64,000 nt of DNA, taken from the sequence record MN850564.1. One strand, written 5' to 3'. This DNA comes from Escherichia phage humlepung. How positions within the stretch are numbered: position 1 is the stretch's first letter; each line of letters opens with the position of its first letter. The notes beneath the pieces were generated by a model. It did not search any database. It worked only from the letters and a program-made list of their open reading frames with translations, and had not been told where the DNA came from. A program made the translations under genes and the position numbers. Below are positions 1-42,222 of this stretch, piece after piece.

Positions 1-199
1 CAGGAGCTTTTAAGGCTATGTCAAAGGCTCTTACAAGGCTTTTACATGGTCTTAACAGAGATTTAACAATTTCTTAACAATCCCTACATAGTTATGCTTT
101 TAAGGCACTTGTTAGAGACTTGTTAGCCCCTTGTTAAATCTCTGTTAAGACCATGTAAAAGCCTTGTAAGAGCCTTTGACATAGCCTTAAAAGCTCCTG
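1..199. repeat. Perfect 69-bp inverted repeat (arms 1-69 and 131-199, 61-bp spacer); may extend beyond window start
   Basis: Reverse complement of 131-199 equals 1-69 exactly when read by eye. Confidence 0.8.
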
Positions 200-299
200 T
201 AAAGCCCTATAAAAAGCTTTCTGTATAGTTGGGGTGTAACTACTAGGAAGAGACTTAAAAGAGCTTATAAAGAGCTATAGAGAGCTTTTAAGAGGTATG

Positions 300-1140
300 T
301 TTAAAGAATCACTAAGAGGGAAAGGGAACTATAGACCAAGAGATAGTGACCATGTTAATAGCTTGTTAAAAAGATTAAACACTTGTTAGGAACTTGTTAA
401 TTATCTTAACAAAATAACTCTTAAAAATTAACTTGTTAGCTCTTGTTAGTCATCTGTTAAGATTCTGTAAAGCCTATTCAGCACTTGTTAATTGGTATTG
501 TTACCAATCCCTAGAAAACTGTTACAGCCTTGTTAGTTCTGTTAAGAATCTGTTAAGACCTTTGAAGGGTTGTTAAGAAGATGTGAGAACTGTTAAGAGA
601 TTGTTAAGGATATTTTAAAATTTTGCAAAGGGGGTGTTAAGGAGCTGTTAAGGGCTACCAAGCAGATATACATCCTAATCAGATATTTTTGAGTTCCTTC
701 AAAGACCCTAAAAAATGACTTGATAGTCTTATTTTATAAAAATTTTAAGATTCTGAATAATTACCTATACAGTCTTTTAAAAATACAGGTAATAACAGGC
801 TTATAAGATACCTTGTTAGTACCGTGTTAGACCTTGTGAGATAAGGTCTGTAAAGATATTCCTGTTAAGTTTGTTAAAACAGTCTATATAGAGGCTTAGT
901 AGTACCTAGTGAACACCTATAGAGAGTGTCATAGCTGACATAGAGATTAAGAGGTGTATAGGAGCTTCTAAGAGGGTATAGAGAGATGGTTAAGGTGATT
1001 GTATAGGTTGTTAAGAAGGCTTGTTAGAGGGCTTGTTAGAAGGGTTATACAGAGGGGCTATTAAGACCACTAGATAGTTACTAAGATACTATATAGTACT
1101 ATATAACTATATAGAGAGTAAGATTAAGAGGGTTGTTAAG
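300..1140 (+). repeat. Iteron-like array of YTGTTAR motifs (TGTTAAG / TTGTTAG / CTTGTTA), more than 25 same-strand copies in non-coding DNA
   Basis: Visible repeated heptamers, e.g. 361-470, 480-660, 810-880, 1010-1140; no ORF of 60 aa or more in 1-1248. Confidence 0.75.
1090..1105. repeat. 16-bp perfect palindrome TATATAGTACTATATA
   Basis: Sequence is its own reverse complement. Confidence 0.7.
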
Positions 1141-1202
1141 AAGGATAGATATTTTGTTCACATATGATGGTGACCCAGAGGTTGGGACAACCGATAAAAT
1201 TT

Positions 1203-1240
1203 TATAAAAATAAAAAGCCCCCCCAATTAAGGAGGCTCTT
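1203..1240 (-). terminator. Putative rho-independent terminator for minus-strand gene 1249-1800
   Basis: Imperfect GC stem (agcccccc...ggaggct) followed on minus strand by T-run (plus-strand A-run 1203-1215). Confidence 0.4.
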
Positions 1241-1248
1241 AAGATATT

Positions 1249-1800
1249 TTAAATCAGACTTTCTAAAACTGTTTTTAGTGATGACTTAGTTGTCTGATAA
1301 AAATGAGTGAATCCATTGTTGTTATCGAATATCTGCATCATAACAGCATCTCCCTTGATTGGGTACACTCGGATATCATAGTGAAACCCATTAAAGACAG
1401 CAGAACCATTACAGAATACACTAAAATCATCCACTGAGATATACTCTTCATGACCTGTGATTTTTATACAGACACCTTTGCTCGGCCTCTTAGGGTTGAT
1501 ATCTTCCATAATAGACATACTCTGTCCACCAAGAGATACCATAGTGACCACTTTACGGTTCTTCTGTTTAAAGTACATTTTAACTTTCTGCAAAGTGTCT
1601 TCATAGAACGGATAAGACCTTTCTACAAAGATTCCTTCAAGTGGCTCTTTACCATTTTCAACTTCTCTGTTATGCCGTACTGCAAAGATGATTTGTTCGA
1701 ACCAGTCAAGATTTTCTTCGGAGAGTGCTTCTCGAATATCACTCCAGTCAAGGACTAGGTAGTTACCTTCAACTTCTTTTACATCTTTAAAAACTTGCAT
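1249..1800 (-). CDS. hypothetical protein (183 aa)
   Basis: ATG start with upstream GAAGG RBS; tightly packed in minus-strand operon. Confidence 0.6.
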   Translation of the reverse strand: MQVFKDVKEVEGNYLVLDWSDIREALSEENLDWFEQIIFAVRHNREVENGKEPLEGIFVERSYPFYEDTLQKVKMYFKQKNRKVVTMVSLGGQSMSIMEDINPKRPSKGVCIKITGHEEYISVDDFSVFCNGSAVFNGFHYDIRVYPIKGDAVMMQIFDNNNGFTHFYQTTKSSLKTVLESLI

Positions 1801-1854
1801 ATTCGCTACCTTCTAAGTTTCTACAAAGGGGCTATCAAGTAACCCCTCAAGTTA

Positions 1855-2079
1855 CTACTCAGACTTTTCAGTCTTCTTATCGGATTTCTTACTAGTCTTC
1901 TTCTCAGCTTTCTGTTCAGGTTCCTTCTCAGAAGTTGCCTTGATAACCATATCAAGAAGCTCTGATAAATCACTCTTCAGCAAAGTAACAGGCTGCTCGT
2001 TGTAGAAGTTTTTGTCAAGATAAACTTTGAACTCTTCTATAGAAGGAAATCCAAAAATTGGTACAGGTGTCTTAATCAT
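1855..2079 (-). CDS. hypothetical small protein (74 aa), Lys/Glu-rich C-terminus
   Basis: ORF in operon context. Confidence 0.4.
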   Translation of the reverse strand: MIKTPVPIFGFPSIEEFKVYLDKNFYNEQPVTLLKSDLSELLDMVIKATSEKEPEQKAEKKTSKKSDKKTEKSE

Positions 2080-2155
2080 TACTTAGTCTCTCCATAGGCA
2101 TCTTTTAAGATTGCCTTGTTAATCATTTCAGCGATTGCAAAACGAACACATACAG

Positions 2156-2689
2156 CTATAATTGTAGGTTGCATTCTTTACTTACCTCTTCAAGTTTAAC
2201 TTCAGAGTCCTTAAGTCGTTTCTTATGAACTCTGAACCTCATTAGTGAGATGATAATACCAGCTAAAGGAACAGCATACAAGTACCAAATATCATGTAGC
2301 TTTGCAGTAATCTGTGTAATTGTCAAGTCTTGAGCTATGTAGCTGATTGCTGATACAGCTAGTAATGTTGCTAAGAAGAACACTAGTATCATAACAATAT
2401 TTAGGCAGCCTCTGGCATGATATTCATGCTTAATGCACTTGTTCTTTTCGTCAACAACCCTGTTGTAGTCGTTTGTAAAGTCTCTGTAGAAAGCTTTCAA
2501 GTATTCTTGACTGTAGCCCTCAAAGCAACCTGTACCGTACCAATAATCACCACCAAAATGTGCTATGATACCGGTATCTCCATTCGGTTTGGTTACTCTA
2601 AGAGAAGTATGATGACCAGTCTTCTGGTAATCTATTTTGTATCTTTCTTCGTAAATCATTTCCCAACCCCTCTCAATCGTTTGTTCCAC
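2156..2689 (-). CDS. hypothetical membrane protein (177 aa)
   Basis: Hydrophobic segment LNIVMILVFFLATLLAVSAISYIAQ. Confidence 0.5.
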   Translation of the reverse strand: MEQTIERGWEMIYEERYKIDYQKTGHHTSLRVTKPNGDTGIIAHFGGDYWYGTGCFEGYSQEYLKAFYRDFTNDYNRVVDEKNKCIKHEYHARGCLNIVMILVFFLATLLAVSAISYIAQDLTITQITAKLHDIWYLYAVPLAGIIISLMRFRVHKKRLKDSEVKLEEVSKECNLQL

Positions 2690-2874
2690 TCAAGGTCAAC
2701 AAGCCTTTGCAGGACTTTCCCTCTAGGTGTTACACCTTTTAAATCTGCATCGTAGCAACGGTAAAAGTCACCTTCAGCGTGTTTACCATAGCATTTTCTG
2801 ATATTCTGGCTCCTACGATACTGCTCTAACAGGGACAGTTTGTAGTAGTCTTCAACTGTAGTTAGTTTTTTCAT
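2656..2874 (-). CDS. hypothetical protein (72 aa)
   Basis: ORF; overlaps neighbours by short ATGA-type junctions. Confidence 0.35.
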   Translation of the reverse strand: MKKLTTVEDYYKLSLLEQYRRSQNIRKCYGKHAEGDFYRCYDADLKGVTPRGKVLQRLVDLEWNKRLRGVGK

Positions 2875-3416
2875 TCTTTCACCATAGCGTTTCTGAACTG
2901 GCGTTGTGTTTCTCTTGTAATTTCGTTTGGAGTAAACCCTGCTTTTAGCATATCTCTGAAAAGAACTTCTAAATGGTTCCTCTCAATGATGTAAATGGCA
3001 TTCTGAATAGCTGTTTTGCACTCCTTCAGGTCACTACTAATCTCTTCGCACTTACTGGTAAGCTCTGTGTCAACTTTCTTATAGACTGGCATAACATGTG
3101 CGTAGCAACCCTTATTAGCCTCCATGAAAAATTTAAAAGATTCTTCAGAGTCCTTTAGAGCAATCCCTATAAAGTTTTTGTAAGCGCCTGTGAAAGATAA
3201 TGACTCAATCTCAGCAGTTGAGTATACAGTCCCTGCACACAGTCTTGCAGAAGTACTAAATGTGTGGTTTGGTGTTGTGTCAAAGTCTAAGTTCTTCAGT
3301 GGTCGGAAATAAACTGTACCGTTGTGTGAGATGTGTGTTACAACAGCCTCAACACTCTTTGAAGGATTCTGTTTAACATACAAAATGATTTTATCGTGTT
3401 CTTTCACTTTAGCCAT
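2871..3416 (-). CDS. hypothetical protein (181 aa)
   Basis: ORF in operon. Confidence 0.5.
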   Translation of the reverse strand: MAKVKEHDKIILYVKQNPSKSVEAVVTHISHNGTVYFRPLKNLDFDTTPNHTFSTSARLCAGTVYSTAEIESLSFTGAYKNFIGIALKDSEESFKFFMEANKGCYAHVMPVYKKVDTELTSKCEEISSDLKECKTAIQNAIYIIERNHLEVLFRDMLKAGFTPNEITRETQRQFRNAMVKE

Positions 3417-3488
3417 ATCTACTCTCCAGAAACTAAAAAGGGAACTACCTCTCGATAGCTCCCATCATAATCAATATTATATACTCGG

Positions 3489-4070
3489 TCAAGAGTATTT
3501 TTTAGGCAGCAATGCACTGCGCTTGTTACTCTCTTCACTCAATAGTGCAATGAAGTCATCACTTTTACCTTTCCACGGGCTGAATGAAGGGATATGTTCA
3601 CGGATAGCCTCGATAACCGTCTTAAGTGCCGTGTTCTTCATCCACCAATCAGAATCTGCTGATGCCACCACGTAGTATCCACCGTCATCAGTTAAAATTG
3701 GCTCTGAAATACATGGTGAAATCAAAGTGGTGATGATTGAACCGTTGTTCATGTAATATGTGCGCTTCATAACCTTTTCAAGAAGCTTGTGAAGGTCACC
3801 AAACAGTGTTACTAGTTCTTTGTGGTCAATATCTTTTTCGAGGTTTGCTCGATACTTCAATAGTGCAGCATCAACCTCTCTGTCATTGAACTTGAAATAT
3901 TGAACCTCTTCAACAAGGCAAACACTGATATTGTTGACATTCATAGTCAACTTGCAAACTTTTACAGGAGAGTTGATATTTGGTTGAAAAAGTGCAATAC
4001 AACCTTCAATATTTCCAAAATGTTGGACTAATGTTACTTGTGGAGTAATATTCTGTTGCTCTTCGGACAT
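3489..4070 (-). CDS. hypothetical protein (193 aa)
   Basis: ORF in operon. Confidence 0.5.
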   Translation of the reverse strand: MSEEQQNITPQVTLVQHFGNIEGCIALFQPNINSPVKVCKLTMNVNNISVCLVEEVQYFKFNDREVDAALLKYRANLEKDIDHKELVTLFGDLHKLLEKVMKRTYYMNNGSIITTLISPCISEPILTDDGGYYVVASADSDWWMKNTALKTVIEAIREHIPSFSPWKGKSDDFIALLSEESNKRSALLPKKYS

Positions 4071-4414
4071 TACAGTTTCCTCATTAAATACTTTTTAAGT
4101 TGTGTGTTAGGTTTCTCAAAAACTTCTATAGAAGATATCTTGACAGATTCACCACGCATACCAGTATGTTTGAATATGTAGTACTCTAACATCCCTATAT
4201 ACTTTGCTGGTAAGTCATGCTTGACATATACCGTCACAGAATCTTCAAACTCAACGACCTTTGTACCATCTTTGTAGTTAAACTCTTTAGGATGGTTGTA
4301 GTTGTCTATGTCGTACATTAAAAAGAGTCTTTTACGTTGTAAGTCAAGCTTATTTGTTAAAGACTCTTTGATGTCTGAGAAGTTTTTGTACACTGTGACA
4401 TGGAGCTTACTCAT
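4070..4414 (-). CDS. hypothetical protein (114 aa)
   Basis: ORF, start/stop coupling with neighbours. Confidence 0.45.
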   Translation of the reverse strand: MSKLHVTVYKNFSDIKESLTNKLDLQRKRLFLMYDIDNYNHPKEFNYKDGTKVVEFEDSVTVYVKHDLPAKYIGMLEYYIFKHTGMRGESVKISSIEVFEKPNTQLKKYLMRKL

Positions 4415-4700
4415 CGTTAAACTCTCTGACGAAGAAATAGTTGACTTTGTTATTACCTACCATAAGGTCAAAGCAGGTATTCTCAAAAGGTTTGTTGTAG
4501 GCATCATAAGAAGTATATGTATCAGCTACTTGTTTAGTATTGAGCTTTTTACTCGATGGGTTTAAGAGGCCACCATACAGTTTCTTGATAGCCTCTTCTA
4601 CAACAGACCAGATAATTTCGTCAGTAATTTCTTCGTACAGGTCAAGTTCACGCTCTAGTGAGAAGTCACAAATAGGGAAAACAACCTGTACTTTACTCAT
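4407..4700 (-). CDS. hypothetical protein (97 aa)
   Basis: ORF in operon. Confidence 0.45.
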   Translation of the reverse strand: MSKVQVVFPICDFSLERELDLYEEITDEIIWSVVEEAIKKLYGGLLNPSSKKLNTKQVADTYTSYDAYNKPFENTCFDLMVGNNKVNYFFVREFNDE

Positions 4701-5098
4701 TAACGAATCACCTGTGAGACTTGAATTGCTTCAGTTACTGACAAATCACCCACTTTCTCTTCTTTGATAAAAGTGAAGGTGAGTTCAACAGGCTCTTGCT
4801 CTTCTTGCTCAACTGGAACACCGTTAAGCTCATCAAAGATTGATTGAGTTGTCCAGTCTTCTCCACCATCTGGATAGTGGATTGCGTAAAGAGGGAACTC
4901 TAAATCAAACCAACCAAATACAGGACAACCGTCTTCATCATCTCGTACTCGATGAAGTGTGCTTCCAGACCCTGTAAACTGAAGGAATAAATCTCCGTTG
5001 CACTTGTATATTACTGCGTCGGCAAAACCAATGTCTTCTCGACCATCATGACCAAATGTGTCCACCTTTACTTGGATATCTCTAACATCTTTATTCAT
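4700..5098 (-). CDS. hypothetical protein (132 aa)
   Basis: ORF in operon. Confidence 0.45.
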   Translation of the reverse strand: MNKDVRDIQVKVDTFGHDGREDIGFADAVIYKCNGDLFLQFTGSGSTLHRVRDDEDGCPVFGWFDLEFPLYAIHYPDGGEDWTTQSIFDELNGVPVEQEEQEPVELTFTFIKEEKVGDLSVTEAIQVSQVIR

Positions 5099-5489
5099 AA
5101 AAACCTCTCTCTGCTTGTTCGATTTTTGCTTTTAGAACTTCACACCGTTCAATGTGATATCTGGCTTCATGCTCATGTGTCGCCAAAGTTCTTTCAAGAA
5201 TGGTTTTATAGTAACCTGCAAGTTGCTCTCTTGTCAATGGGTTCTCTGAAATAATATCGAGACCACTTTCACCTAGAGTATTAAACTGTCCATGCTCATT
5301 TACATGGTAAGTTTCAAACTTGAATAAACCATTATTAGCAGACTCAATAGGCGATAGTTCAACCAACTCAACAGTAAACCTTGTATGTACCCTATCTCCA
5401 ACTGTAACAACGTTACTTCCAATGATACGTACAAGCGAGCCGTTACGAGTGTACTTAAAAGTTCCAAAGTCACTAGCCCAAAGCTTCAT
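5091..5489 (-). CDS. hypothetical protein (132 aa)
   Basis: ORF in operon. Confidence 0.45.
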   Translation of the reverse strand: MKLWASDFGTFKYTRNGSLVRIIGSNVVTVGDRVHTRFTVELVELSPIESANNGLFKFETYHVNEHGQFNTLGESGLDIISENPLTREQLAGYYKTILERTLATHEHEARYHIERCEVLKAKIEQAERGFYE

Positions 5490-5540
5490 AGTTTTCTCCT
5501 TAGAAAATAAAAAAGGCTCCCGAAGGAGCCTATGAAGATA

Positions 5541-6005
5541 TTACTTTGGATATACACTGTCAAGATAAATGTCAGCTTCCATTCTACGTCTGTTTTTCAG
5601 TCCGTTTGAAGTGACCTTCTGACCTTTGACTGTAACCTTGTTCCACCACTGCATAGCTTCTGCACAACCTACCTTATTACCAGCATTGTGGCGCTTGATA
5701 AATGTAGAATCCTGCATAGCTGTGATACCGATGTTGTATGTTTCACTTACAAGTGCATCGAACTCATTCTGAGAAGTTGGAACCTTGATGGCTTTGTTCA
5801 CTGCTGCAACGAACTTTTCAACATCTGCGAGAAGATACTGTTCAGCTTGTTCAGCAGTAATTTTCATACCCATCTTAACAGGTTTTCCGTCAATACGGAT
5901 TGTCCCATACCCAATTGTTGGGATTCCGGCAGAGTCTTCGTAAGCCTCTAACTTCAGACCTTCGAAGAACTTAATAGCATCTAAACCTTTTCTTGAGAGT
6001 TGCAT
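5541..6005 (-). CDS. endolysin, T4-type lysozyme (glycoside hydrolase family 24)
   Basis: N-terminal FEGLKLEAYEDSAGIPTIGYG with Glu-9-Asp-6-Thr spacing like T4 lysozyme E11/D20/T26. Confidence 0.85.
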   Translation of the reverse strand: MQLSRKGLDAIKFFEGLKLEAYEDSAGIPTIGYGTIRIDGKPVKMGMKITAEQAEQYLLADVEKFVAAVNKAIKVPTSQNEFDALVSETYNIGITAMQDSTFIKRHNAGNKVGCAEAMQWWNKVTVKGQKVTSNGLKNRRRMEADIYLDSVYPK

Positions 6006-6889
6006 TATGCCTCCCCTGCTGGGTTAACTGTAACTGTCGACGCATTAGATGTTACAGAGCCACCTGCGCCAGTCACTACACAGGTGTAGCTTCCTGCATC
6101 AGCAGTGGTTGCACCTTCTTTGGTGTAAGTTGCAGCAGTTGCGTCTGGGATGACTTCCTCACCTTTCTTCCACTGATAACCTGTCGCACCTGTTGCCACA
6201 ACATTCAGTGTTAAGGTCTCACCTTCAGTGATTTCTTGATTGGTTGGTTGCTGAGTGATTACCGGAAGTGCATTCACAGTAACTGTTGCTGCATCTGAGG
6301 TAACACTTGTTCCACCCTCTCCAGATACAACACAAGTGTATGAACCAGCGTCAGAAGGTGCTACTGACTGTTTTGTGTAAGTTGCAGAATTGGCACTAGG
6401 GATGTCCTCACCATCCTTCTTCCACTGATATCCAGTGGCGTTAGTTGCTAGAATGCTTAGAGTAAGTGTGCCACCCTCATTGACTGTTTGACCTGTCGGT
6501 TGCTGAGTAATTGCTGGTGGCTTAATAGCATCCTTCAACTTAGCATTCAACATTGAGAACGGCTTAACTCTTGCCAACCATTCACAGTAAATTGTGTCAA
6601 CATCTTTACCATTGATGATTGCATACTGCAAATCCATGAAGAAATCAGCAGTTCTCATCTGTGCACCAACACTGTAAAGCAATTCATCACTAAATGGAAC
6701 TTTGCAGTCTGGTTTGTAGTCAAACTTCTCAACTTCTGCAATATCAGCTTCAGGCCAATATGAACTATAGGTAAGTGGTAAAATAGCCTCTTGATATGTT
6801 CTAAAATCATACCTCTTACCAGCCTTTACATTTGCAATGAAACCCTTCACAAAATCTTTGAAGTCTGGGTAAGTCTTTGCTTTAATCAT
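6005..6889 (-). CDS. protein with two C-terminal tandem Ig-like domains
   Basis: Two ~90-aa repeats (TQQPT...GYQWKK...GSYTCVV) typical of Ig/I-set-like folds; N-terminal domain paralogous to 6886-7257. Confidence 0.55.
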   Translation of the reverse strand: MIKAKTYPDFKDFVKGFIANVKAGKRYDFRTYQEAILPLTYSSYWPEADIAEVEKFDYKPDCKVPFSDELLYSVGAQMRTADFFMDLQYAIINGKDVDTIYCEWLARVKPFSMLNAKLKDAIKPPAITQQPTGQTVNEGGTLTLSILATNATGYQWKKDGEDIPSANSATYTKQSVAPSDAGSYTCVVSGEGGTSVTSDAATVTVNALPVITQQPTNQEITEGETLTLNVVATGATGYQWKKGEEVIPDATAATYTKEGATTADAGSYTCVVTGAGGSVTSNASTVTVNPAGEA

Positions 6890-7257
6890 TTCTTTTTAGC
6901 CTCTAAATGTGCGTTTAGTCTAAAATAACCTTTGTGATGCGGAGATACATCACCAACAACAATACCTTTAACCTTATAGCCTTTACCAATTACATACTGG
7001 ATATCCATAAGGAATCTTCCAAGTCCAACAATATGGAACATTGGATATAATAGGTTCTCAGAATCTGGAATATTGATTTCAGGTTTGTAGGTACGCTGTT
7101 CGATTGTTGGTGTAATATCTTCTTCAGGCCATTTGCTGAGTCTCCATGTCAAAGGTGTTGGGATAACATCATTAAGGTTGTACCTTTCACCATTTTGCAC
7201 GGAATTGATATAGGATTGTAGGAAGCAATAAAAGTCTTTTGCACTCTTAGCTTTCAT
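6886..7257 (-). CDS. hypothetical protein, paralog of the N-terminal domain of the 6005-6889 product
   Basis: Shared motifs (KDF...Y..P..YKP...LLY...FLMDIQYVI.GK). Confidence 0.5.
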   Translation of the reverse strand: MKAKSAKDFYCFLQSYINSVQNGERYNLNDVIPTPLTWRLSKWPEEDITPTIEQRTYKPEINIPDSENLLYPMFHIVGLGRFLMDIQYVIGKGYKVKGIVVGDVSPHHKGYFRLNAHLEAKKK

Positions 7258-7280
7258 TAAATATCCTTATAAATAGTTAA

Positions 7281-7296
7281 AGGGGCATCAGCCCCT
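7281..7296 (-). terminator. Hairpin AGGGGCatcaGCCCCT, possible terminator between minus-strand genes
   Basis: Perfect 6-bp GC stem with T-rich tract on minus strand. Confidence 0.35.
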
Positions 7297-7304
7297 ATTC
7301 ACAC

Positions 7305-7895
7305 TTAAGCTTTGGTCTTAAGTAGGTTCTTAAGTTTTTTAAGATTCATACTCTCATCAAACTTAAAACCAAATCCATTGACATAATCAATGAACTCGGA
7401 TTTCTTACTAAGTGACAATGCGTAACTCATATCAAAGTTCTTACTTGTTTCTGCGTCTGGACTAGAGTTCACATCAAATGAAATTTCTGTAGGCTCTTGC
7501 TTACTTTTTCTCATATTATCAACCAACAAACATGTATAGTTTGCTGGATAGAAGTTTACACTACCATCAACGTAGCTGTACTTATTATTATGGATAAGGT
7601 TGGAAAATACCTTAAGGAATGTTTCTGAGTCGTGGCAAACAAGTTTGAATTGGCTGCTCTCTCCAAGCGCAACTAATGAGTACGGACTTTCACTATCAAA
7701 GTCATAATTTAGATTCGATGCCGTCACTGTTACACGCATCAAGTTATTAGCAATAGTCTTCTGTTTAAAAGAATTTTGAACATAGTGAAGACCTCTATCA
7801 CACTGATTGACTAGCTCTTTAAGCAGGTCATTTGCATATGGCGAATTAATTGATACAGAGCCATCACTATTGTAATTAAAACTTACTGTTAACAT
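7305..7895 (-). CDS. hypothetical protein (196 aa)
   Basis: ORF. Confidence 0.5.
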   Translation of the reverse strand: MLTVSFNYNSDGSVSINSPYANDLLKELVNQCDRGLHYVQNSFKQKTIANNLMRVTVTASNLNYDFDSESPYSLVALGESSQFKLVCHDSETFLKVFSNLIHNNKYSYVDGSVNFYPANYTCLLVDNMRKSKQEPTEISFDVNSSPDAETSKNFDMSYALSLSKKSEFIDYVNGFGFKFDESMNLKKLKNLLKTKA

Positions 7896-8122
7896 TTTTC
7901 AGTTCTCCTGCGATTTATAATTTTGCTGCAATAGAGAAACGAAGTAAACTCACTGGAAGAAACTACTAAGTGTTGTTCACTAGATTGAGCCATTGCCCTG
8001 AAATACATTCCAGTCAAAGCATCATAGTGACTATTCTTTCCAATTGAGGTTATATAGCCATGACTCTTTGCAGTTTGATATAAATCTATAATATCTGCGA
8101 TTTCTAATTGGGAACTACACAT
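7889..8122 (-). CDS. hypothetical protein (77 aa)
   Basis: ORF. Confidence 0.35.
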   Translation of the reverse strand: MCSSQLEIADIIDLYQTAKSHGYITSIGKNSHYDALTGMYFRAMAQSSEQHLVVSSSEFTSFLYCSKIINRRRTEKC

Positions 8123-8364
8123 AGATAATCCTCTTGTCTTCTGTAATTTTGAAAGAACAGGTACAGACCAATTTCAGAGGATGAATAGTAGAGTAACTCT
8201 ACCCTTTTTGATTCCTTACAGTGATTGGTATTTTTACCTTTCTTCGGGTTGTTTGATTTTCTCATTAAGTCTCCTTTGTAGAACAAGGCAGACCTACAGC
8301 TTTAAGTAAGATGGTACAGTAATCCATACAACAAGTCAAGAACTATTGCAAGTTAAAAAAGTTG

Positions 8365-8394
8365 TTGACAAAGTACTTGACAAGGTGTAGGCTT
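8365..8394 (+). promoter_or_regulatory. Conserved promoter/operator element TTGACAAAGTACTTGACAAGGTGT (copy 1), -35 TTGACA + 17 nt + TAGGCT
   Basis: Near-identical element at 48838-48861; both sit at minus-to-plus strand switch points. Confidence 0.55.
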
Positions 8395-8514
8395 ATAAAT
8401 ACTTAGAAGATAACTTAAAAGGTTCCTCTAAAAAGGCTATTTAAACAGATATCTTTCTGGATATCTATCTTTTATCTTAAAAGCCTTTTAAGAGGTCTTA
8501 TAAGAGGCATACCA

Positions 8515-8886
8515 ATGAAAAACAGAACAAACAAAGGCCAGTTTAAAAAAGGCCAGTCTGGAAACCCATCTGGAAGACCAAAAGGCTCTCGTAACAAAAG
8601 CTCACTCGTAAAAGCTCAACTGACCATTGATAATTCTGCTGAGTTTGCTGCAAAGTTGTTTGAAGCGATTGTTACAAGGGATGCTGCTAAGCTTGCAGAG
8701 TTCGGGTTAAACACAGATGACGTAACCATCAAGAGTATGATTGAGGTTGGTAAAACTATCTTTACTCACTCAGCAGGTGAGATGAAAGCACTTGCAGCAG
8801 ACACTAAGAAGACTCCTGATAATGGTGGTCAACAGCAGACAGATAACAAACCAACGTTCTCTGCTGTAGCGACTCTCAAAAAATAA
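8515..8886 (+). CDS. conserved phage protein with GQSGNPSGRPKG motif (DUF5681-like by recollection)
   Basis: ATG with AAGAGG RBS; N-terminal basic GNPxGRPKG motif. Confidence 0.55.
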   Translation: MKNRTNKGQFKKGQSGNPSGRPKGSRNKSSLVKAQLTIDNSAEFAAKLFEAIVTRDAAKLAEFGLNTDDVTIKSMIEVGKTIFTHSAGEMKALAADTKKTPDNGGQQQTDNKPTFSAVATLKK

Positions 8887-8898
8887 TTTTAAAAGGTG

Positions 8899-8934
8899 TT
8901 GACAGACTCTATAAAGTTGCTCTAAAGTCTGTCA
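8899..8934 (+). promoter_or_regulatory. Sigma70-like promoter (TTGACA-18-TAAAGT) embedded in 9-bp inverted repeat TGACAGACT/AGTCTGTCA
   Basis: Consensus -35, plausible -10, dyad symmetry spanning the promoter; upstream of 8968 gene. Confidence 0.45.
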
Positions 8935-8967
8935 CATCAAACAACAAATGAGAGAAGAGAGTAAAAT

Positions 8968-10383
8968 ATGAGCGAATTATTTAAACATGCGCACCTTCAT
9001 GCAGGTCGAACTGAAAATGGTGCTGTAAACCATACTTCATCAATGTCTGCTCTTGTAGACTTTTACAAAGCTGCTGGTTCGAGCCGTAGCAATGTAGAAA
9101 TCTTACCAGACCTGTTCTACAAAGCTTTGCGTGAGGATGTTGATGTTGCAGTTCGTATTTTACTGCATATGCGAGATGTACGAGAAGGTATGGGTGAGCG
9201 TAAAGCTTTCCGAACTGTTTTACTTAAAGCAATTGAAGATAAGATTTTAGAACCTACACAGGTTCTTCGCATTATGGATAAGATTGCAGAACTTGGTCGT
9301 TTTGATGACTTCAAAATCTTCGTAGGTACTCGTTTTGAGACAGATGCCTTCAAACATTTAGAAGCAGCATTACTAGACCCTGCAACAGCAGGTTTGGCGG
9401 CTAAGTGGTTACCACGAGTCAAACCACGTCATAAGCAGTTTGTAAAACGTTTCTGCAAGTTTGCCAACTTGAGTGAGAAAGAGTACCGCACACTGTTGTC
9501 TGCACTATCTGATACAGTTGAGCAAAAAATCTCTGCTAATGAGTTTGGTAAGATTGACTACAGTAAGATTCCTTCACTTGCTGCTGCACGTTACCAAAAA
9601 CTGTTTAACCGTAAAGATGGAGAGCGTTACAAAGCTTACATCGAGTCCTTATCAAAAGGTGAGACTAAGATTAACGCTGGTGCTGTTTACCCATACGATG
9701 TGATTAAATCTGTCAAGTATGGTAATGCAGATGTTGCTAATGAGCAGTGGAAAGCACTACCAAACTGGATGGCAGAAGGTGAAAACATCTTGTGTATGTC
9801 TGATGTATCAAGTTCAATGTCTTGGGTGAATTTTGGCTCCATTACTGCTCTGGATATTGGTGTATCACTTGCCTTGTATGTAGCAGAACGCAATACAGGT
9901 TGCTTTAAGAATGAGTTAATGGTTTATTCAACAAACCCTCACTTCATCGAACTGAGTGGTGATTTACGAAACCGTCATCGTCAGGTGATGCGACACGTTG
10001 AATATGGCTCAACTAACTTACAAGCAGCTTTTGACCGCATTCTTGAAACAGGTAAAAGAAACAACTTGACTCAGAAAGATATGCCAAGTAAGCTTATCAT
10101 CTTCTCCGATATGGAGTTCAATCAGGTTGATGGAGCTAACGGTCGTACAAACTTTGAAGCAATTCAGAGTAAGTACAAAAAAGCTGGATATGAGATGCCA
10201 CAACTGGTATTCTGGTACTTAGCAAACCGTAATGGTACTTGCGAAGTATCTGTTAAGGATAACGGTGTAGCAATGGTATCAGGGTTCTCTCCAGCCACTT
10301 TAAAAGCTCTGCTTGGTGGTGAGAAGTTTGACCCAATCAGTGTAATGCTCAAAGCAGTAATGATTGACCGTTATATCTGGTAA
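8968..10383 (+). CDS. Ro60/TROVE-like protein with C-terminal von Willebrand factor A domain (DUF2828-like N-terminus by recollection)
   Basis: MIDAS-like DVSSSMS...T...IIFSDMEFN resembling Ro60 vWA (DVSASM / FTDCETN); N-terminal TENGA...S..ALVDFY motif. Confidence 0.6.
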   Translation: MSELFKHAHLHAGRTENGAVNHTSSMSALVDFYKAAGSSRSNVEILPDLFYKALREDVDVAVRILLHMRDVREGMGERKAFRTVLLKAIEDKILEPTQVLRIMDKIAELGRFDDFKIFVGTRFETDAFKHLEAALLDPATAGLAAKWLPRVKPRHKQFVKRFCKFANLSEKEYRTLLSALSDTVEQKISANEFGKIDYSKIPSLAAARYQKLFNRKDGERYKAYIESLSKGETKINAGAVYPYDVIKSVKYGNADVANEQWKALPNWMAEGENILCMSDVSSSMSWVNFGSITALDIGVSLALYVAERNTGCFKNELMVYSTNPHFIELSGDLRNRHRQVMRHVEYGSTNLQAAFDRILETGKRNNLTQKDMPSKLIIFSDMEFNQVDGANGRTNFEAIQSKYKKAGYEMPQLVFWYLANRNGTCEVSVKDNGVAMVSGFSPATLKALLGGEKFDPISVMLKAVMIDRYIW

Positions 10384-10402
10384 AAAGTTTTAAAAAGGGT
10401 AT

Positions 10403-10431
10403 TGACAATGTGTTTAATACCCTTTAATATG
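10403..10431 (+). promoter_or_regulatory. Sigma70-like promoter TTGACA-17-TAATAT inside inverted repeat AAGGGTATT/AATACCCTT
   Basis: Exact -35 consensus, 17-nt spacer, TAATAT -10; upstream of tRNA array. Confidence 0.6.
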
Positions 10432-10548
10432 TTCTACATAGAAGCGAAATGAGAGCTTTTCTAAGATACTGAAAAATATTTTAAAAAAGTTCTTGACAAC
10501 CACTAAAAAATAATGTTAAAGTGGTTACATAGAGTTTGAAAAGTTTAT

Positions 10549-10625
10549 CTCTGTTTAGCTCAGCTTGGTAGAGCGTTCCGTTTGGGGCGGTAAGGCCGGA
10601 GGTTCAAGTCCTCCAACAGAGACCA
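10549..10625 (+). tRNA. tRNA-Pro (anticodon TGG)
   Basis: 7-bp acceptor ctctgtt/aacagag, D-arm gctc/gagc, T-loop TTCAAGT, encoded CCA. Confidence 0.75.
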
Positions 10626-10632
10626 AATTAAT

Positions 10633-10710
10633 GTTCCAGTAGACAAAATGGTAAAGTCACCACTCTTTCAAAGTGGATATTTGAGGGTTCAAATCCCTTC
10701 TGGAACGCCA
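10633..10710 (+). tRNA. tRNA-Glu (anticodon TTC)
   Basis: Acceptor gttccag/ctggaac, anticodon loop cTTTCaa, T-loop TTCAAAT, CCA. Confidence 0.7.
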
Positions 10711-10715
10711 GTTTT

Positions 10716-10791
10716 GACAGAAGACCAATTACAGCAAACTTAATCTTATTCATCTGAAGGTAAATCGGACAAAGAAGAGATTTGGTCTGGT
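10716..10791 (+). repeat. Structured repeat element copy a (5' GACAGAAGACCA ... 3' TGGTCTGGTC)
   Basis: Member of four-copy family with conserved CAGAAGACC...TACAGCAA...GGTCTGG and covarying flanks. Confidence 0.5.
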
Positions 10792-10801
10792 CATTAAGAA
10801 T

Positions 10802-10878
10802 TGCGGGTATAGAGAAAGGGCGTCTCACATGTCTCATTAGCATGGTATCGGCAGGTTCGACTCCTGCACCCGCCTCCA
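10802..10878 (+). tRNA. tRNA with CAT anticodon (Met or Ile2)
   Basis: Anticodon stem catgt/gcatg, loop cTCATta, T-loop TTCGACT, CCA; 1:72 mismatch. Confidence 0.6.
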
Positions 10879-10882
10879 ATTT

Positions 10883-10946
10883 TGCAGAAGACCGTATTCA
10901 GCAACAAAATACTTTTTGCGGATAAAAGAAAAAACACGGTCTGGCA
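10883..10946 (+). repeat. Structured repeat element copy b (5' TGCAGAAGACCGT ... 3' ACGGTCTGGCA)
   Basis: Same family; flank covariation tGC/GCa. Confidence 0.5.
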
Positions 10947-10955
10947 ATGTATTAA

Positions 10956-11029
10956 GGTTAGGAAGCACATAAGGTATGTGCGGTCGCCTGTTAAGCGAAT
11001 GGCACAGGGTTCGAATCCCTGACTAACCG
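10956..11029 (+). tRNA. tRNA-Asn (anticodon GTT)
   Basis: Anticodon loop ctGTTaa, T-arm caggg-TTCGAAT-ccctg, acceptor 6/7 paired; no encoded CCA. Confidence 0.65.
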
Positions 11030-11040
11030 CAAAATTAAAT

Positions 11041-11128
11041 GTGTCGTTATCCCGTAGATGGTAGCGGTGGGGACTGTAAATCCCTTGTCATTGAGACTCG
11101 GTAGGTTCGACTCCTACACGGCACACCA
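11041..11128 (+). tRNA. tRNA-Tyr (anticodon GTA), type II with long variable arm
   Basis: 85 nt, acceptor gtgtcgt/acggcac, loop ctGTAaa, T-loop TTCGACT, CCA. Confidence 0.7.
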
Positions 11129-11133
11129 ATAAA

Positions 11134-11210
11134 GGCTATGTAGTTTAACTGGAGAAAATACTCCCCTGTCACGGGAGATGATGTGAGTTCAAGTCTCATC
11201 GTAGCCGCCA
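11134..11210 (+). tRNA. tRNA-Asp (anticodon GTC)
   Basis: Acceptor ggctatg/cgtagcc, loop ctGTCac, T-loop TTCAAGT, CCA. Confidence 0.7.
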
Positions 11211-11237
11211 ATTTTGAGAGGGCTATTTAGCCCCTCC

Positions 11238-11272
11238 CTTAAAGAGTTCTTACGAGTATTCTTTAAGGGAGC
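11238..11272 (+). repeat. Hairpin CCCTTAAAG-(agTTCTTACGAGtatt)-CTTTAAGGG
   Basis: 9-bp perfect stem; loop motif TTCTTACGAG recurs at 14277-14286. Confidence 0.5.
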
Positions 11273-11348
11273 AGAAGACCAAATACAGCAAGAATGTATG
11301 AAATTTCAAGCCAATTTAATTTTGAAAATTTAAAACTTGGTCTGGCTC
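11269..11348 (+). repeat. Structured repeat element copy c (5' GAGCAGAAGACCAA ... 3' TTGGTCTGGCTC)
   Basis: Same family; flank covariation GAGC/GCTC. Confidence 0.5.
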
Positions 11349-11354
11349 AACAAA

Positions 11355-11493
11355 TTTACAGAAGGCCGTTTACAGCAAAACTTAAACAATCTATTTCTCC
11401 GGTAAAGAAAAGGCGAAGGTTCGATTCCTTCACTCGGCAGATGTCGAGTTGGTGTAATGGTAGCACTTAAGATGATAAACAACGGTCTGGTAA
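11355..11493 (+). ncRNA. Candidate structured ncRNA (element copy d): terminal stem TTACAGAAGGCCGTT/AACGGTCTGGTAA enclosing tRNA-like T-arm and D-arm hairpins
   Basis: Internal gaagg-TTCGATT-ccttc hairpin with T-loop consensus, acceptor-like hairpin, D-arm-like gtgtAATGGTAgcac; no complete tRNA fold. Confidence 0.3.
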
Positions 11494-11639
11494 TTACCTT
11501 TGTAGATAAGTTATTAAGCTTACTTGTGAGTATGCGACCACAAAGGGTGAATGGGTAAATTCTAGATTTAAACCCAAAAAGGCACATCGCTACAGACCTT
11601 AAGCAAGTCTGGGTAGCTTATCTACAAAGATAATTTAAT

Positions 11640-11715
11640 GGAAGTGTAGCAGAATGGTGATGCGGCAGACTTTTAATCTGACAGGCGATGGGTTCGAATC
11701 CCTCCACTTCTACCA
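11640..11715 (+). tRNA. tRNA-Lys (anticodon TTT)
   Basis: Acceptor ggaagtg/cacttct, loop cTTTTaa, T-loop TTCGAAT, CCA. Confidence 0.65.
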
Positions 11716-11719
11716 ATAT

Positions 11720-11796
11720 GGTTCAGTCGCAGATAAGGTAATGCAAGGGTCTCATAAGCCCTATGAATGTGGGTTCGATTCCCATCTGAACCTCCA
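11720..11796 (+). tRNA. tRNA with CAT anticodon (Met or Ile2), second copy
   Basis: Perfect acceptor ggttcag/ctgaacc, loop cTCATaa, T-arm gtggg-TTCGATT-cccat, CCA. Confidence 0.65.
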
Positions 11797-11797
11797 A

Positions 11798-11873
11798 GCT
11801 GGTATAGTTAAGAAGGTTATAACACTCCCCTGATAAGGGAACATCGGTGGTTCGATTCCACCTACCAGTACCA
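11798..11873 (+). tRNA. tRNA-Ile (anticodon GAT)
   Basis: Loop ctGATaa, T-arm ggtgg-TTCGATT-ccacc, CCA. Confidence 0.65.
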
Positions 11874-11888
11874 ATTTCAATAAAGTTG

Positions 11889-11917
11889 TTGACATTGAGA
11901 TGTGACTACTTTATAGT
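11889..11917 (+). promoter_or_regulatory. Sigma70-like promoter TTGACA-17-TATAGT inside the tRNA region
   Basis: Exact -35, 17-nt spacer, TATAGT -10. Confidence 0.55.
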
Positions 11918-12121
11918 AACCTTAGTTTTCGTTGCGTAGCGTCTATTTTGCAAATTTAAAATAAATGCAAACGACAATGTTTTTCTGGCAGTAGCTTGAT
12001 AGGCTAAACACCAGTGAGGTCTTCCAATCCCTCATCAAAGAATTTGGCGTACTCGCCCACGGTATGATTAATAAGGTGGGCATCTTTAAGGGCTTTCTAA
12101 GAGAGTCTTTAAAGATAATTA

Positions 12122-14028: not shown

Positions 14029-14104
14029 AGGGGATTAGTTTACAAGGTTAAAACCTCGGTCTTTGAAATCGAAGAAGTTGGTTCAATTCCAACATCCCCC
14101 GCCA
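14029..14104 (+). tRNA. tRNA-Gln (anticodon TTG)
   Basis: Loop ctTTGaa, perfect T-arm gttgg-TTCAATT-ccaac, CCA; 1:72 mismatch. Confidence 0.6.
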
Positions 14105-15803: not shown

Positions 15804-15824
15804 TTCTATTTGCGGAGGCGCTTA

Positions 15825-17426
15825 ATGGACTTAAATGCTGTTAAGCAGAAGCGAGTGGAAGATGTTAGGAAAGTCCTAGCTGGAGAGTTGGGGCTTTCTG
15901 ATGAAGTAAAAGAAATTATCAAATCATTCGGTAAAGACCCCTCTAAATTCCTTCCAACTCAAATTCTGACTTTATTAAGATACACACCAGACCAAGTTAG
16001 GCTTATCTTCAAATTGATGACTGATAAGAACTATGTAGCCCCTCAGCCGGGTTCTCAAGAGGTCTTTTTAAACACTAATGCTGACTTGGTTCTTTATGGT
16101 GGTGCTGCTGGTGCTGGTAAAACTGCTGCATTGTTAATGGACTCTTTAAGATTTATTGAAGACCCTAACTATAATGCTGTATATTTCCGTCGAAATACAA
16201 CACAGTTACAAGGTGGTTTATGGCCTGCTGCAAAGAAACTATTTGGTAAGTTTGGTGGGATTCCCCATGAGCAGAAAATGACTATCACATTCCCTTCTGG
16301 GGCGACTATCAAGTTTACCTATCTAGAACTTGAAAAGCACGCTGAAGGCCATCAGGGTATTGAATACTCAGCTATTTACTTTGACGAAGGTACACACTTC
16401 TCTGCTTCACAGATTTCATACCTACAAACCCGTCTACGTTCTGGTGCTGAAGGTGATTCATACATGAAGATTTCCATGAACCCAGATAGAGACCACTTTA
16501 TTTACGATTGGGTAGAACCATTCTTAGATGAAGAAGGTTACCCAGACCCTGAAAAGTGTGGTCGTATTCGTTGGTATGTAATGAATGATGGTGTGATGGT
16601 TTCTGATTGGGAGAGAGACAAGATTCTTGAAATGTTCCCTCTTGAGATTCCTCAAACATATACATTCATCTCTGGTACGATTGATGATAACCCAATTCTT
16701 GACTTCTTAGAACCAAAATACCGTGGTAAGTTGGAAAACAACACCCCTGTAAACGTTGCAAGACTTCGTTTCGGTAACTGGAAGGCTCGTGCAGAAGGTT
16801 CAAACTATTGGCAAAGACAATGGTGTGAAATTGTTGATTCACTCCCAGAAGATGTATTTGATGTTAGAGCATGGGACTTAGCAGCAACTTTACCATCGGA
16901 GATTAACCCTAATCCAGACTGGACAGCAGGTGTTAAGATGGGTAAATCTAAAAAAGACGGTTGCTATTATATCATTGATGTAGTAAGATTTAGAGATAGA
17001 CCCTCTGGAGTCGAAACACAAATTAATTTGACTGCTGAAAGTGACGGTAAGCGAACTGGTATTTTTATCCCTCAAGACCCAGGCGCTGCTGGTAAATCCT
17101 ACGCAACATCCCTCATCAGGAAACTTGCCGAGAAAGGTTATCGAGCAAGAGCCAAACCAACAAATAAAGATAAAGTTACCCGCTTTGCGGGATTTTCTGC
17201 TGCTTCTGAAGCTGGACTTGTAAAAGTCTTGAGAGGTAGTTGGAATGAAGCTTACTTTCAAGAGCTTGAAGGCTTTTGTGGTGATGGCAAAACTAAAGAT
17301 GACCAAGTGGATGCTACCAGTGATGCTTTCAACAGTCTTAACGAAGTTAAATTATTCAAGCCACCATCAATGGGTGCTCACACAGATTTAGTGAGAGGAA
17401 ACCCATATGAGGGGCTTAGACGTTGA
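15825..17426 (+). CDS. terL: terminase large subunit
   Basis: Walker A LYGGAAGAGKT; start moved to ATG 15825 with GGAGG RBS (track start 15810 is TTG). Confidence 0.85.
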   Translation: MDLNAVKQKRVEDVRKVLAGELGLSDEVKEIIKSFGKDPSKFLPTQILTLLRYTPDQVRLIFKLMTDKNYVAPQPGSQEVFLNTNADLVLYGGAAGAGKTAALLMDSLRFIEDPNYNAVYFRRNTTQLQGGLWPAAKKLFGKFGGIPHEQKMTITFPSGATIKFTYLELEKHAEGHQGIEYSAIYFDEGTHFSASQISYLQTRLRSGAEGDSYMKISMNPDRDHFIYDWVEPFLDEEGYPDPEKCGRIRWYVMNDGVMVSDWERDKILEMFPLEIPQTYTFISGTIDDNPILDFLEPKYRGKLENNTPVNVARLRFGNWKARAEGSNYWQRQWCEIVDSLPEDVFDVRAWDLAATLPSEINPNPDWTAGVKMGKSKKDGCYYIIDVVRFRDRPSGVETQINLTAESDGKRTGIFIPQDPGAAGKSYATSLIRKLAEKGYRARAKPTNKDKVTRFAGFSAASEAGLVKVLRGSWNEAYFQELEGFCGDGKTKDDQVDATSDAFNSLNEVKLFKPPSMGAHTDLVRGNPYEGLRR

Positions 17427-41892: not shown

Positions 41893-42222
41893 TTAATCTG
41901 CCAACCTTAAATTGAAATTAACACCAAATTTTTCACACACTTCCAACATATACTCAAGAGAGACATTGCCAGTGAGATGGATTATGTTGGATACGCGAGC
42001 CTGAGAGATACCACAAATTTTAGCAACTTGCTCTTGAGAAAGACCTCTGGATTTAATCTCTCTCTTAAAACGATGTGCAACGAAGTCTCTCATTTCGTCT
42101 ACACCCATTGGACAAATATAACTCTCCATTTCAGCCTCTCTATCAGCCTCCCAATCATCTTGTGGAGCATAAGGGTCAAAAGCTTCATTCATCTTTCTTC
42201 TTCCGTTTGCGTGAAGTGTCAA
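41893..42222 (-). CDS. helix-turn-helix DNA-binding protein (XRE-like)
   Basis: LSQEQVAKICGISQARVSNIIH resembles an HTH motif. Confidence 0.5.
   Translation of the reverse strand: MTLHANGRRKMNEAFDPYAPQDDWEADREAEMESYICPMGVDEMRDFVAHRFKREIKSRGLSQEQVAKICGISQARVSNIIHLTGNVSLEYMLEVCEKFGVNFNLRLAD

Follow-up and report, generated by a model that had tools for sequence, protein, structure and literature searches.

Introduction

Bacteriophage T7 carries a short direct terminal repeat of 160 bp at a non-coding concatemer junction, and a heptamer of one strand is repeated many times in and beside it. Eleven CCTAAAG heptamers, all on the same strand, are found in bases 1–340, in or beside the left terminal repeat, and five are found near the right end. 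Models for the duplication of the T7 terminal repeat, including one with a hairpin intermediate, have been summarized (PMC4281155). In the present study the left end of Escherichia phage humlepung was analyzed, using a stretch of 64,000 nucleotides from the sequence record MN850564.1 (in the following "the window"). Its first 1,248 nucleotides had been predicted to form a non-coding region with a perfect 69-bp inverted repeat and more than 25 same-strand YTGTTAR heptamers, and this had been interpreted as an array for protein binding, with an origin, a packaging or terminal region, and a regulatory sink being given as examples. The window is similar to T7 in having a short direct terminal repeat (DTR) at a non-coding concatemer junction, a heptamer that is repeated many times on one strand in and beside the terminal repeat, and replication genes that include a gp4-type primase-helicase. 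It differs from T7 in the heptamer (TGTTAAG instead of CCTAAAG), in its spacing (11 bp instead of mostly 13 bp), and in the length of the repeat (about 600 bp instead of 160 bp), which here also contains most of the units. In addition, the window phage differs from T7 in being a myovirus with a T4-like Terminase_6 terminase. T7 has no sequence homology with the window, and thus the parallel is an analogy.

Phased short repeats beside a cutting site are also present in phage lambda (the R sites of cosB, together with IHF) and in phage SPP1 (pacL and pacR), and they are thought to wrap an oligomeric DNA-binding protein. They belong to cos or headful pac systems, which have a single cut site, in contrast to the two boundaries 600 bp apart and the about 22 units of the window. 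Furthermore, the lambda and SPP1 sites are small-terminase sites, whereas no small terminase gene was recognized in the window phage. The phages of the Pseudomonas phage PaP1 group have a terminase large subunit (TerL) with about 40% identity to that of the window, and the PaP1 RefSeq record has neither a terminal repeat at its ends nor a heptamer array there.

For Felix O1, merely "short terminal repeats" were inferred, and the region analyzed here was not discussed (Whichard et al., 2010; PMC3185647). PhageTerm-based DTRs have been reported for the genus, including a DTR of 581 bp in Pr103Blw (PMC8303462, PMC11737134). That the genus has a DTR is already established. No description of the phased TGTTA array inside the DTR, of the mirror-image boxes at its boundaries, and of the 11-bp ladder of DTR lengths was found in the literature searched, and these appear to be new. 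The array is a further case of short-repeat arrays at phage terminal repeats.

Results

The Window Starts at the Left End of a Felixounavirus Genome

Positions 1–1300 and 1–12000 of the window matched 268–291 phage records with 80–96% identity. Nearly all of them belong to the genus Felixounavirus (Felix O1 group), and more distant relatives were found in Mooglevirus, Suspvirus, and the Erwinia phages of Kolesnikvirus. The closest record was that of phage heid (96%), and no identical record was present among the matches. All 291 matching records were Ounavirinae with the exception of a few odd or contaminated ones, such as Staphylococcus phage SA1 and a weak match of 69 nt to a Listeria phage. 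The SA1 record (GU169904.1, 147 kb) contains a complete DTR region of the Felix O1 type at 135901–137078 with about 89% identity, which suggests that it is a chimeric or contaminated deposit.

Exact DTRs were found at both record ends of four complete relatives, i.e., SeKF_63 (613 bp), ZX4221 (591 bp), ECP2307 (592 bp), and CRP22 (579 bp). The boundaries were identical in these four two-copy records, and all DTRs started with GCCCCCTTAACA and ended with GGGCTACC. The records of H12, I14.1, SPJ41, and NBEco004 begin or end at the very same base, which is located 17 nt to the left of the equivalent of window position 63, and the annotated DTR of UAB_69 (618 bp) has its boundaries displaced by 2 nt. 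An Erwinia phage also has a homologous DTR, with a length of about 443 bp. End-to-end alignment with the DTRs of the four relatives revealed that most of the repeat is present in the window (Table 1). From this alignment its left end is expected at about position 46, with the bases through position 62 being overwritten, and its right end at position 659. The length of the DTR is 614 bp if the missing 17 nt are counted in.

Judged by homology, the window is a Felixounavirus genome, and the region under study is its left physical end. The original prediction had raised the question whether the window start is a physical end of the genome, and the answer is therefore yes, by homology; that this could be a terminal or packaging region was borne out, as positions 63–659 are the DTR of the genus. 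It was also verified that the region is non-coding, because the longest open reading frame (ORF) in 1–1248 has 47 amino acids (aa) and none reaches at least 60 aa. In relatives the region is either unannotated or contains only tiny hypothetical ORFs. The homologous stretch of Felix O1 is a gap of 1.6 kb between ORF23 (plus strand) and ORF24 (minus strand), and both genes are directed into the gap.

The two boundaries of the DTR are mirror images, because both genome ends, when read inward, start with G..GCCC-TTAACA-N5-TTAACA. The left terminal box thus has a mirror counterpart at the right edge of the DTR, at 634–651 on the plus strand. Conservation was computed over 25 distinct DTRs, and the two TAACA motifs of the left terminal box, at positions 64 and 75, were retained in all 25. 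The sequence of the right boundary is conserved in Mooglevirus and Suspvirus. Directly outside of it, the sequence AAGCAGATATACA (window 660–672) is invariant in three genera, and its core GATATACA is retained even in the Erwinia phage. The invariant sequence is a candidate for a part of the cut-site signal of the terminase. Unlike the right boundary, the left boundary, which begins with GCCCCCTTAACAT, could not be found anywhere in the window when up to 3 mismatches were allowed, and a fold-back of 62 bases is present in its place (see below). Based on the relatives, the left physical end of this phage, read leftward, would be expected to end with ...GAAAATGTTAAGGGGGC. In Erwinia phage vEam_W_28 (PP079186.1) the two copies of the terminal repeat differ (GTTAACACTTTTAACATC versus GTTAACAACTTTTTAACATC), and this is due either to the assembly or to a real difference between the two ends.

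The DTR Contains a Phased Array of TGTTA Units

The array was compared with 2000 dinucleotide-preserving shuffles of bases 63–1248. On the plus strand 25 YTGTTAR heptamers were found between positions 109 and 1139, while the shuffled sequences had an average of 1.05 (standard deviation 0.97) and a maximum of 6. The enrichment of the heptamer was thereby verified, and the predicted number of more than 25 is reached only when variants with G or A in front of TGTTA are counted. The minus strand has four heptamers in 1–1248 (at 52, 63, 74, and 406), three of which are in 63–1248. The TGTTA core is present 30 times on the plus strand, compared to an average of 2.88 in the shuffles. The distance between neighboring cores was exactly 11 bp in 11 of 29 cases (0.009 in shuffles), and the other distances were mostly 20–22 or 31–33 bp. 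The phased pair TGTTA-N6-TGTTA occurs ten times on the plus strand and once on the minus strand of 63–659, and three times in the other 62.7 kb. Altogether, the DTR has about 22 same-strand TGTTA(A/G) units in an 11-bp register, i.e., one helical turn, and they form four clusters (Table 1).

Cluster A has TGTTA at positions 110, 121, 132, and 143, followed by TGTAA, TGTAA, and more degenerate units. The units at 121 and 132 are present in all 25 DTRs, and the unit at 143 in 24 of them. Cluster D is the sole part of the DTR that can still be aligned to the Erwinia (Kolesnikvirus) phages, which match window positions 546–672.

The columns of the TGTTA cores were 94.4% conserved, in contrast to 83.1% for the other DTR columns (Mann–Whitney p = 1e-11). 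Internal insertions and deletions (indels) had lengths of 1, 11, or 20–23 nt only. The DTR lengths formed clusters at 569–570, 579–582, 590–592, 601–603, 613–614, and 623–625, and they constitute an 11-bp ladder because the indels comprise only 1, 11, or about 22 nt. The Erwinia phages have kept TGTTAA arrays, although their DTRs are otherwise almost unalignable, and conservation of the cores and of the 11-bp register extends over four genera. The predicted protein-binding array is thus indirectly supported by the extreme enrichment, the exact 11-bp phasing, the conservation of the cores, and the indels in quanta of 11 bp.

A palindromic mini-insert, AATTGGTATTGTTACCAATCCC, was found at 489–512. 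At the alignment position of the window (site 499) it is present in 2 of 25 DTRs only. Among the relatives it occupies at least three different non-coding positions, including one outside of the DTR in pEC-M719-6WT.1, and copies were found at 389–410, 1573–1594, and 552–573 of three comparison sequences (in their own coordinates). Its behavior thus resembles that of a very small mobile or recombining element. Direct repeats of 57 bp have been described for Felix O1 between genes 15/16 and 19/20 (CTTTACATGGGGCTTAAAAGTCTGTAAAG...; Whichard et al., PMC3185647). They contain CTTAAAAG and CTGTAAAG, and both words also occur in phase in cluster A. The 57-bp repeats can also be read as a promoter of the form TTTACA-N17-TAAAGT.

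Table 1. Coordinates of features at the left end of the humlepung genome and of selected genes in the window.
Feature	Position	Strand	Description
Fold-back segment	1..62		Exact reverse complement of 138–199
Fold-back junction	63..69		TTAACAA, natural 7-bp microhomology with TTGTTAA at 131–137
DTR, portion present	63..659	+	End-to-end alignment with the DTRs of SeKF_63, ZX4221, ECP2307, and CRP22, 85–89% identity
Left terminal box	63..80	-	Two TGTTA units 11 bp apart (TTGTTAAGAAATTGTTAA), directed at the left end
Cluster A	98..218	+	Eleven successive 11-bp units in exact register
Cluster B	352..412	+	TGTTA at 353, 364, 384, 395 and an inverted unit at 407; kept in 23–25 of 25 DTRs
Cluster C	433..491	+	TGTTA at 434, 444, 455, 486
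Palindromic mini-insert, about 22 bp	489..512		AATTGGTATTGTTACCAATCCC; in some relatives only
Cluster D	519..651	+	TGTTA at 520, 531, 540, 551, 571, 591, 602, 635, 646
Right DTR boundary	652..671		GGGCTACC / AAGCAGATATAC, cut between 659 and 660; same in all four two-copy records
Unique left-end non-coding region	660..1212	+	72–96% conserved across three genera
Intrinsic terminator	1213..1240	-	12-bp stem, then T run; closes the leftward operon
First gene inward from the left end	1249..1800	-	phrog_4330
Terminase large subunit (TerL)	15810..17426	+	Terminase_6N 2e-43, Terminase_6C 4e-33; phrog_979

The Perfect Inverted Repeat Is Probably a Chimeric Fold-Back

Bases 1–69 are the exact reverse complement of bases 131–199, and the complementarity is first interrupted at position 70. 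When mismatches are allowed, the arms widen to 1–80 and 120–199 with a complementarity of 94%. The folding energy of bases 1–199 as single-stranded DNA is -85.5 kcal/mol (z = -20.9). A search of Rfam yielded no family at the gathering score, and matches to miRNA precursors merely mirror the perfect hairpin. The 69-bp inverted repeat is therefore exact, as had been predicted, but it is not a conserved element. Colinear homology begins at window position 63 in the 291 related phage records and in 20 further metagenome or genome contigs, and the only match of the left arm in relatives is to the reverse complement of the stretch that corresponds to 131–199. Bases 1–62 were found in none of about 300 relatives, and exact scans of IMG/VR, JGI metagenomes, and GTDB genomes did not contain the junction sequence. 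Upstream of position 63 the relatives have ...AAATGCTA GCCCCCTTAACATTTTC TTAACAATTTC..., while the window has ...CATGGTCTTAACAGAGAT TTAACAATTTC.... The fold-back thus takes the place of the first 17 nt of the DTR (GCCCCCTTAACATTTTC in relatives) and runs 45 nt past the expected physical end. Its left arm is flush with base 1 of the window, and its junction is located 17 nt inside the terminus that is defined in the relatives. Taken together, the predicted sequence features are real, and the perfect inverted repeat is confined to this sequence.

A natural kernel of the inverted repeat is conserved. Its arms at 63–80 and 120–137 are complementary at 13 of 18 bases, and it consists of two or three inverted TTAACA units opposite forward TGTTA units. 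The region does not qualify as a terminal inverted repeat or hairpin telomere, as the left arm is present in no relative and only this imperfect kernel is conserved. The resected bottom strand forms a 3′ hairpin that is more stable than those of shuffled sequences (z = -3.3).

Inverted chimeras with short microhomologies are a well-known product of strand-displacement amplification and of end repair. Such snap-back chimeras at DNA ends likewise have a perfect inverted duplication, a microhomology of a few bp within about 70 nt, and a location at the end of a contig, and we infer that the fold-back of the window is one of them. After a loss of 17 nt from its 3′ end, the bottom strand could have folded back on the TTAACAA/TTGTTAA microhomology of 7 bp and could have been extended, and the chimeric molecule would then have been assembled onto the end of the contig. 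The perfect inverted repeat is thus probably a chimeric snap-back end, i.e., a library or assembly artifact rather than an in vivo intermediate.

The Unique Left-End DNA and Neighboring Genes

Inward of the DTR, TGTTA units are also present in the unique non-coding region (at 814/825, 863/872, 1009/1022/1034, and 1134), on the same strand and with a spacing of 9–13 bp. A word family with the consensus TATA[CG]AGRG occurs at 918, 977, 1046, and 1110, and another copy is found inside the DTR at 276. The predicted 16-bp palindrome TATATAGTACTATATA is indeed present at 1090–1105, and so are the AGAGRG-rich tracts, with nine copies on the plus strand and none on the minus strand of 1–1248. This is about 17 times the per-strand density of the remaining window, which has 27 copies on the plus strand and 35 on the minus strand. 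An A+T-rich tract with 24% G+C is located at 701–800. At the place of the intrinsic terminator, a terminator has also been annotated in relatives.

The helix-turn-helix (HTH) protein encoded at 41893–42222 (minus strand), which had been suggested as a candidate for binding assays, belongs to the XRE-type HTH_3 family. Nothing was found that ties it to direct repeats, and it was rejected as the binder of the array. It has 109 aa from a TTG start, compared to 99 aa (or 78 aa) in related contigs, and its real start is probably downstream of the coordinates used in the original prediction. An array of promoters was rejected as well. A sigma-70 scan of 1–1400 gave 8 weak matches versus 4.0 expected, and the rejection follows from the fact that most of these matches are the TTAACA units themselves. 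The primase-helicase of the window is of the T7 gp4 type (Toprim and DnaB_C), and a gene for a SegE-like homing endonuclease of the GIY-YIG type is present in the replication module at 55676–56173 (plus strand).

Discussion

A Protein-Binding Array at the Concatemer Junction

The reading that is favored here, with a probability of roughly 70%, is that the region is the left end of the genome including its DTR, that the DTR contains a phased protein-binding array at the concatemer junction which marks the cut sites, and that the perfect inverted repeat is a fold-back that stands outside of this machinery. Virion DNA carries the DTR at its two ends, and replicating concatemers contain one copy per unit. 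The array is thus located within the concatemer junction and is flanked by the two cut sites. It could serve as a landing platform for an oligomerizing DNA-binding protein that would coat or wrap one face of the junction DNA. The bound array would mark or shape the junction, so that the terminase could cut at two mirror-image boundaries that are about 600 bp apart and on opposite strands. TerL would be expected to make the cuts at the DTR boundaries. The repeat may be duplicated by nicking at both boundaries and strand-displacement synthesis, as has been proposed for T7, and after injection the array module may have a further role at the ends. Support for this mechanism comes from the parallel with T7, which has CCTAAAG arrays on one strand in and beside its own repeat, and from the gp4-type primase-helicase of the window phage. 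We infer that the 69-bp inverted repeat is not part of the end-processing machinery.

Several points weigh against this reading. The termini of this particular phage were placed by homology, and the second copy of the DTR lies beyond the 64-kb window (the genome has about 87 kb). Neither a small terminase nor another candidate DNA-binding partner was recognized among the proteins of the window, and an ORF of 66 aa upstream of TerL matched no known function. The TGTTA units outside of the DTR (814–1134) are off the 11-bp register. The quantized indels could be due to slippage between 11-bp repeats instead of selection for helical phase, and the fold-back could have formed in vivo instead of being a library or assembly artifact.

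Alternative Explanations

The array could also be an iteron-type replication origin to which a phage initiator binds. In favor of such an origin are the large number of short repeats on one strand, their helical phase, and the A+T-rich tract at 701–800, and in T7 secondary origins adjoin the terminal repeats, with promoters named phiOL and phiOR. However, no initiator gene was recognized or is adjacent, no DnaA boxes were found in 1–1300, and the primase-helicase has no recognized origin-binding domain. In addition, the genes on both sides converge on the region, and therefore it sits at the 3′ ends of operons. The GC skew in the window follows gene orientation only, and it is thus of no use as an indicator for an origin or terminus, for which it had been proposed. 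Furthermore, array and DTR coincide exactly, an indication of functions at the genome ends. The origin of the original prediction is thus without support and is regarded as improbable, while its terminal region turned out to be right and its perfect inverted repeat is not a conserved element. Equally improbable is the view that the fold-back is a genuine in vivo product, e.g., a hairpin-primed intermediate of terminal-repeat duplication comparable to the hairpin ends in T7 concatemer processing. Its junction is only 17 nt away from the real terminus and makes use of natural inverted TTAACA/TGTTA units that are kept in 25 of 25 DTRs, the natural end is capable of a modest hairpin at its 3′ side (z = -1.9 to -3.3), and in T7 infection a hairpin that includes the terminal repeat has been described (PMC4281155, citing Chung and Hinkle, 1990). 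Yet the fold-back is known from one sequence only and is missing from all relatives that were assembled across or up to this end. It has the form of the microhomology-based inverted chimeras that amplification and end repair are well known to produce. Slightly less probable still is that the repeats are a decaying 11-bp tandem repeat which has no sequence-specific function and is maintained by slippage. The eleven successive units of cluster A with their progressive decay and the indels in 11-bp quanta would be expected from slippage, and simple TGTTA tandem repeats with a period of 11 bp are frequent in unrelated viruses. This explanation does not account for the selective conservation of the cores relative to the spacers, for the retention of the five core bases where the DTRs otherwise barely align, e.g., in the Erwinia phages, or for the invariant inverted units at both ends. 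Moreover, the spacers between the units differ, and thus the units are not recent copies of one another.

The remaining alternative names the binding protein, and it is viewed as rather doubtful, albeit less so than those above. The array could be a platform or decoy for the host response regulator ArcA-P, which would be recruited as an architectural or end-binding factor, or would be titrated from its regulon in hosts in the anaerobic gut. The regulatory sink of the original prediction would thus have a concrete candidate in ArcA-P. ArcA sites consist of 2–5 direct repeats with the core TGTTA and a center-to-center distance of 11 bp, while a spacing of 12 bp is not bound (PMC3798270, PMC4173790). 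The array satisfies the published definition, i.e., TGTTA direct repeats of at least two units at 11 bp. An ArcA matrix was rebuilt from 115 ArcA boxes identified by ChIP-seq, and it correlated with the published scores with r = 0.994. Real ArcA sites have 9.1 to 21.4 bits on this matrix, with an average of 15.8. In 63–659 (597 bp) 14 sites with at least 10 bits were predicted, including 4 with at least 15 bits. The background in the rest of the window is 0.28 (at least 10 bits) and 0.024 (at least 15 bits) per kb and strand, and thus the DTR is 40- to 140-fold above it. The best predicted site is the left terminal box with 22.6 bits, which is above the maximum of all 115 real sites. The same pattern was obtained with ten relatives of four genera, the hosts of which are all Enterobacterales, while the T7 ends had none, and consensus boxes for PhoP, PmrA, PhoB, CpxR, OmpR, and TorR gave no matches. 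Like the ArcA sites of E. coli and Salmonella (e.g., icdA and astC), the array is thus multimeric, with TGTTA cores in direct orientation at 11 bp, and its scores are within or above the range of real sites. However, the matrix rewards TGTTA at 11 bp, and therefore the score is largely a restatement of the motif, and the fit is one of motif sequence. The chromosomal sites have 2–5 units overlapping promoters and A/T-rich flanks, whereas the array has about 22 units and is in a non-promoter region. The units of the phage have conserved flanks of their own (nCTTGTTAAGAn), with C at -2, G at +5/+6, and spacers that contain G+C, at positions where ArcA sites are A/T-rich. These flanks (CT-TGTTA-AGA, with G or C being frequent, versus the A/T-rich 10-bp element of ArcA, ATGTTAAAAA) are penalized by the matrix, and still the sites pass. 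Furthermore, the units at 814–1134 have spacings of 9–13 bp, no paper linking arcA with these phages was found in the literature searched, and many contigs of unrelated viruses also have TGTTA tandem repeats of 11 bp.

A scan of IMG/VR for four TGTTA units at a spacing of 11 bp yielded more than 120 loci, which beyond the Ounavirinae were mostly simple 11-bp tandem repeats. Many of the latter are in A+T-rich contigs of unrelated viruses, and the scan has no bearing on the question of a host factor. One unrelated contig, IMGVR_UViG_3300021400_002676 (14105 bp), has four TGTTA units with 11-bp spacing at 14–51 (minus strand) and, in inverted orientation, at 14055–14092 (plus strand), and it may be another element with terminal TGTTA arrays. 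An ArcA-like domain encoded by the phages themselves was searched for with tblastn, and the DNA-binding domain of ArcA gave no match in Ounavirinae at E values up to 10; the matches obtained were bacterial contaminants and unrelated phages, and nothing significant was found in the window itself. The idea of a phage-encoded ArcA-like domain was rejected, and the negative outcome also weighs against the ArcA reading.

Implications for Felix O1-Like Phages

The start of the sequence record is not trustworthy, as it consists of a fold-back of about 62 bases and lacks the 17 bases of the true terminus. Users of the record for termini, primer design, or engineering need to be warned about its start.

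The array would be more interesting if a host regulator proved to be its binder. It is tempting to speculate, with due reserve, that the DTR is a landing pad with about 20 sites for ArcA-P or another winged-helix protein of the OmpR/PhoB type. If so, ArcA-P would couple the recognition, protection, or packaging of genome ends to the anaerobic state of the host. Alternatively, hundreds of replicated DTR copies would soak up ArcA-P and would thereby derepress respiratory metabolism. The quantization of DTR lengths in steps of 11 bp would then reflect the need for a continuous head-to-tail protein filament.

The recognition and duplication of genome ends in phages with short DTRs is poorly understood, even in T7. 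In the Felix O1-like phages, which are a widely used group for typing and biocontrol, the junction is unusually legible, with two mirror-image boxes, about 22 sites spaced by one helical turn, and natural length variants that differ by whole 11-bp units. It thus offers direct hypotheses for the mapping of the packaging signal and a cheap test of an involvement of ArcA.

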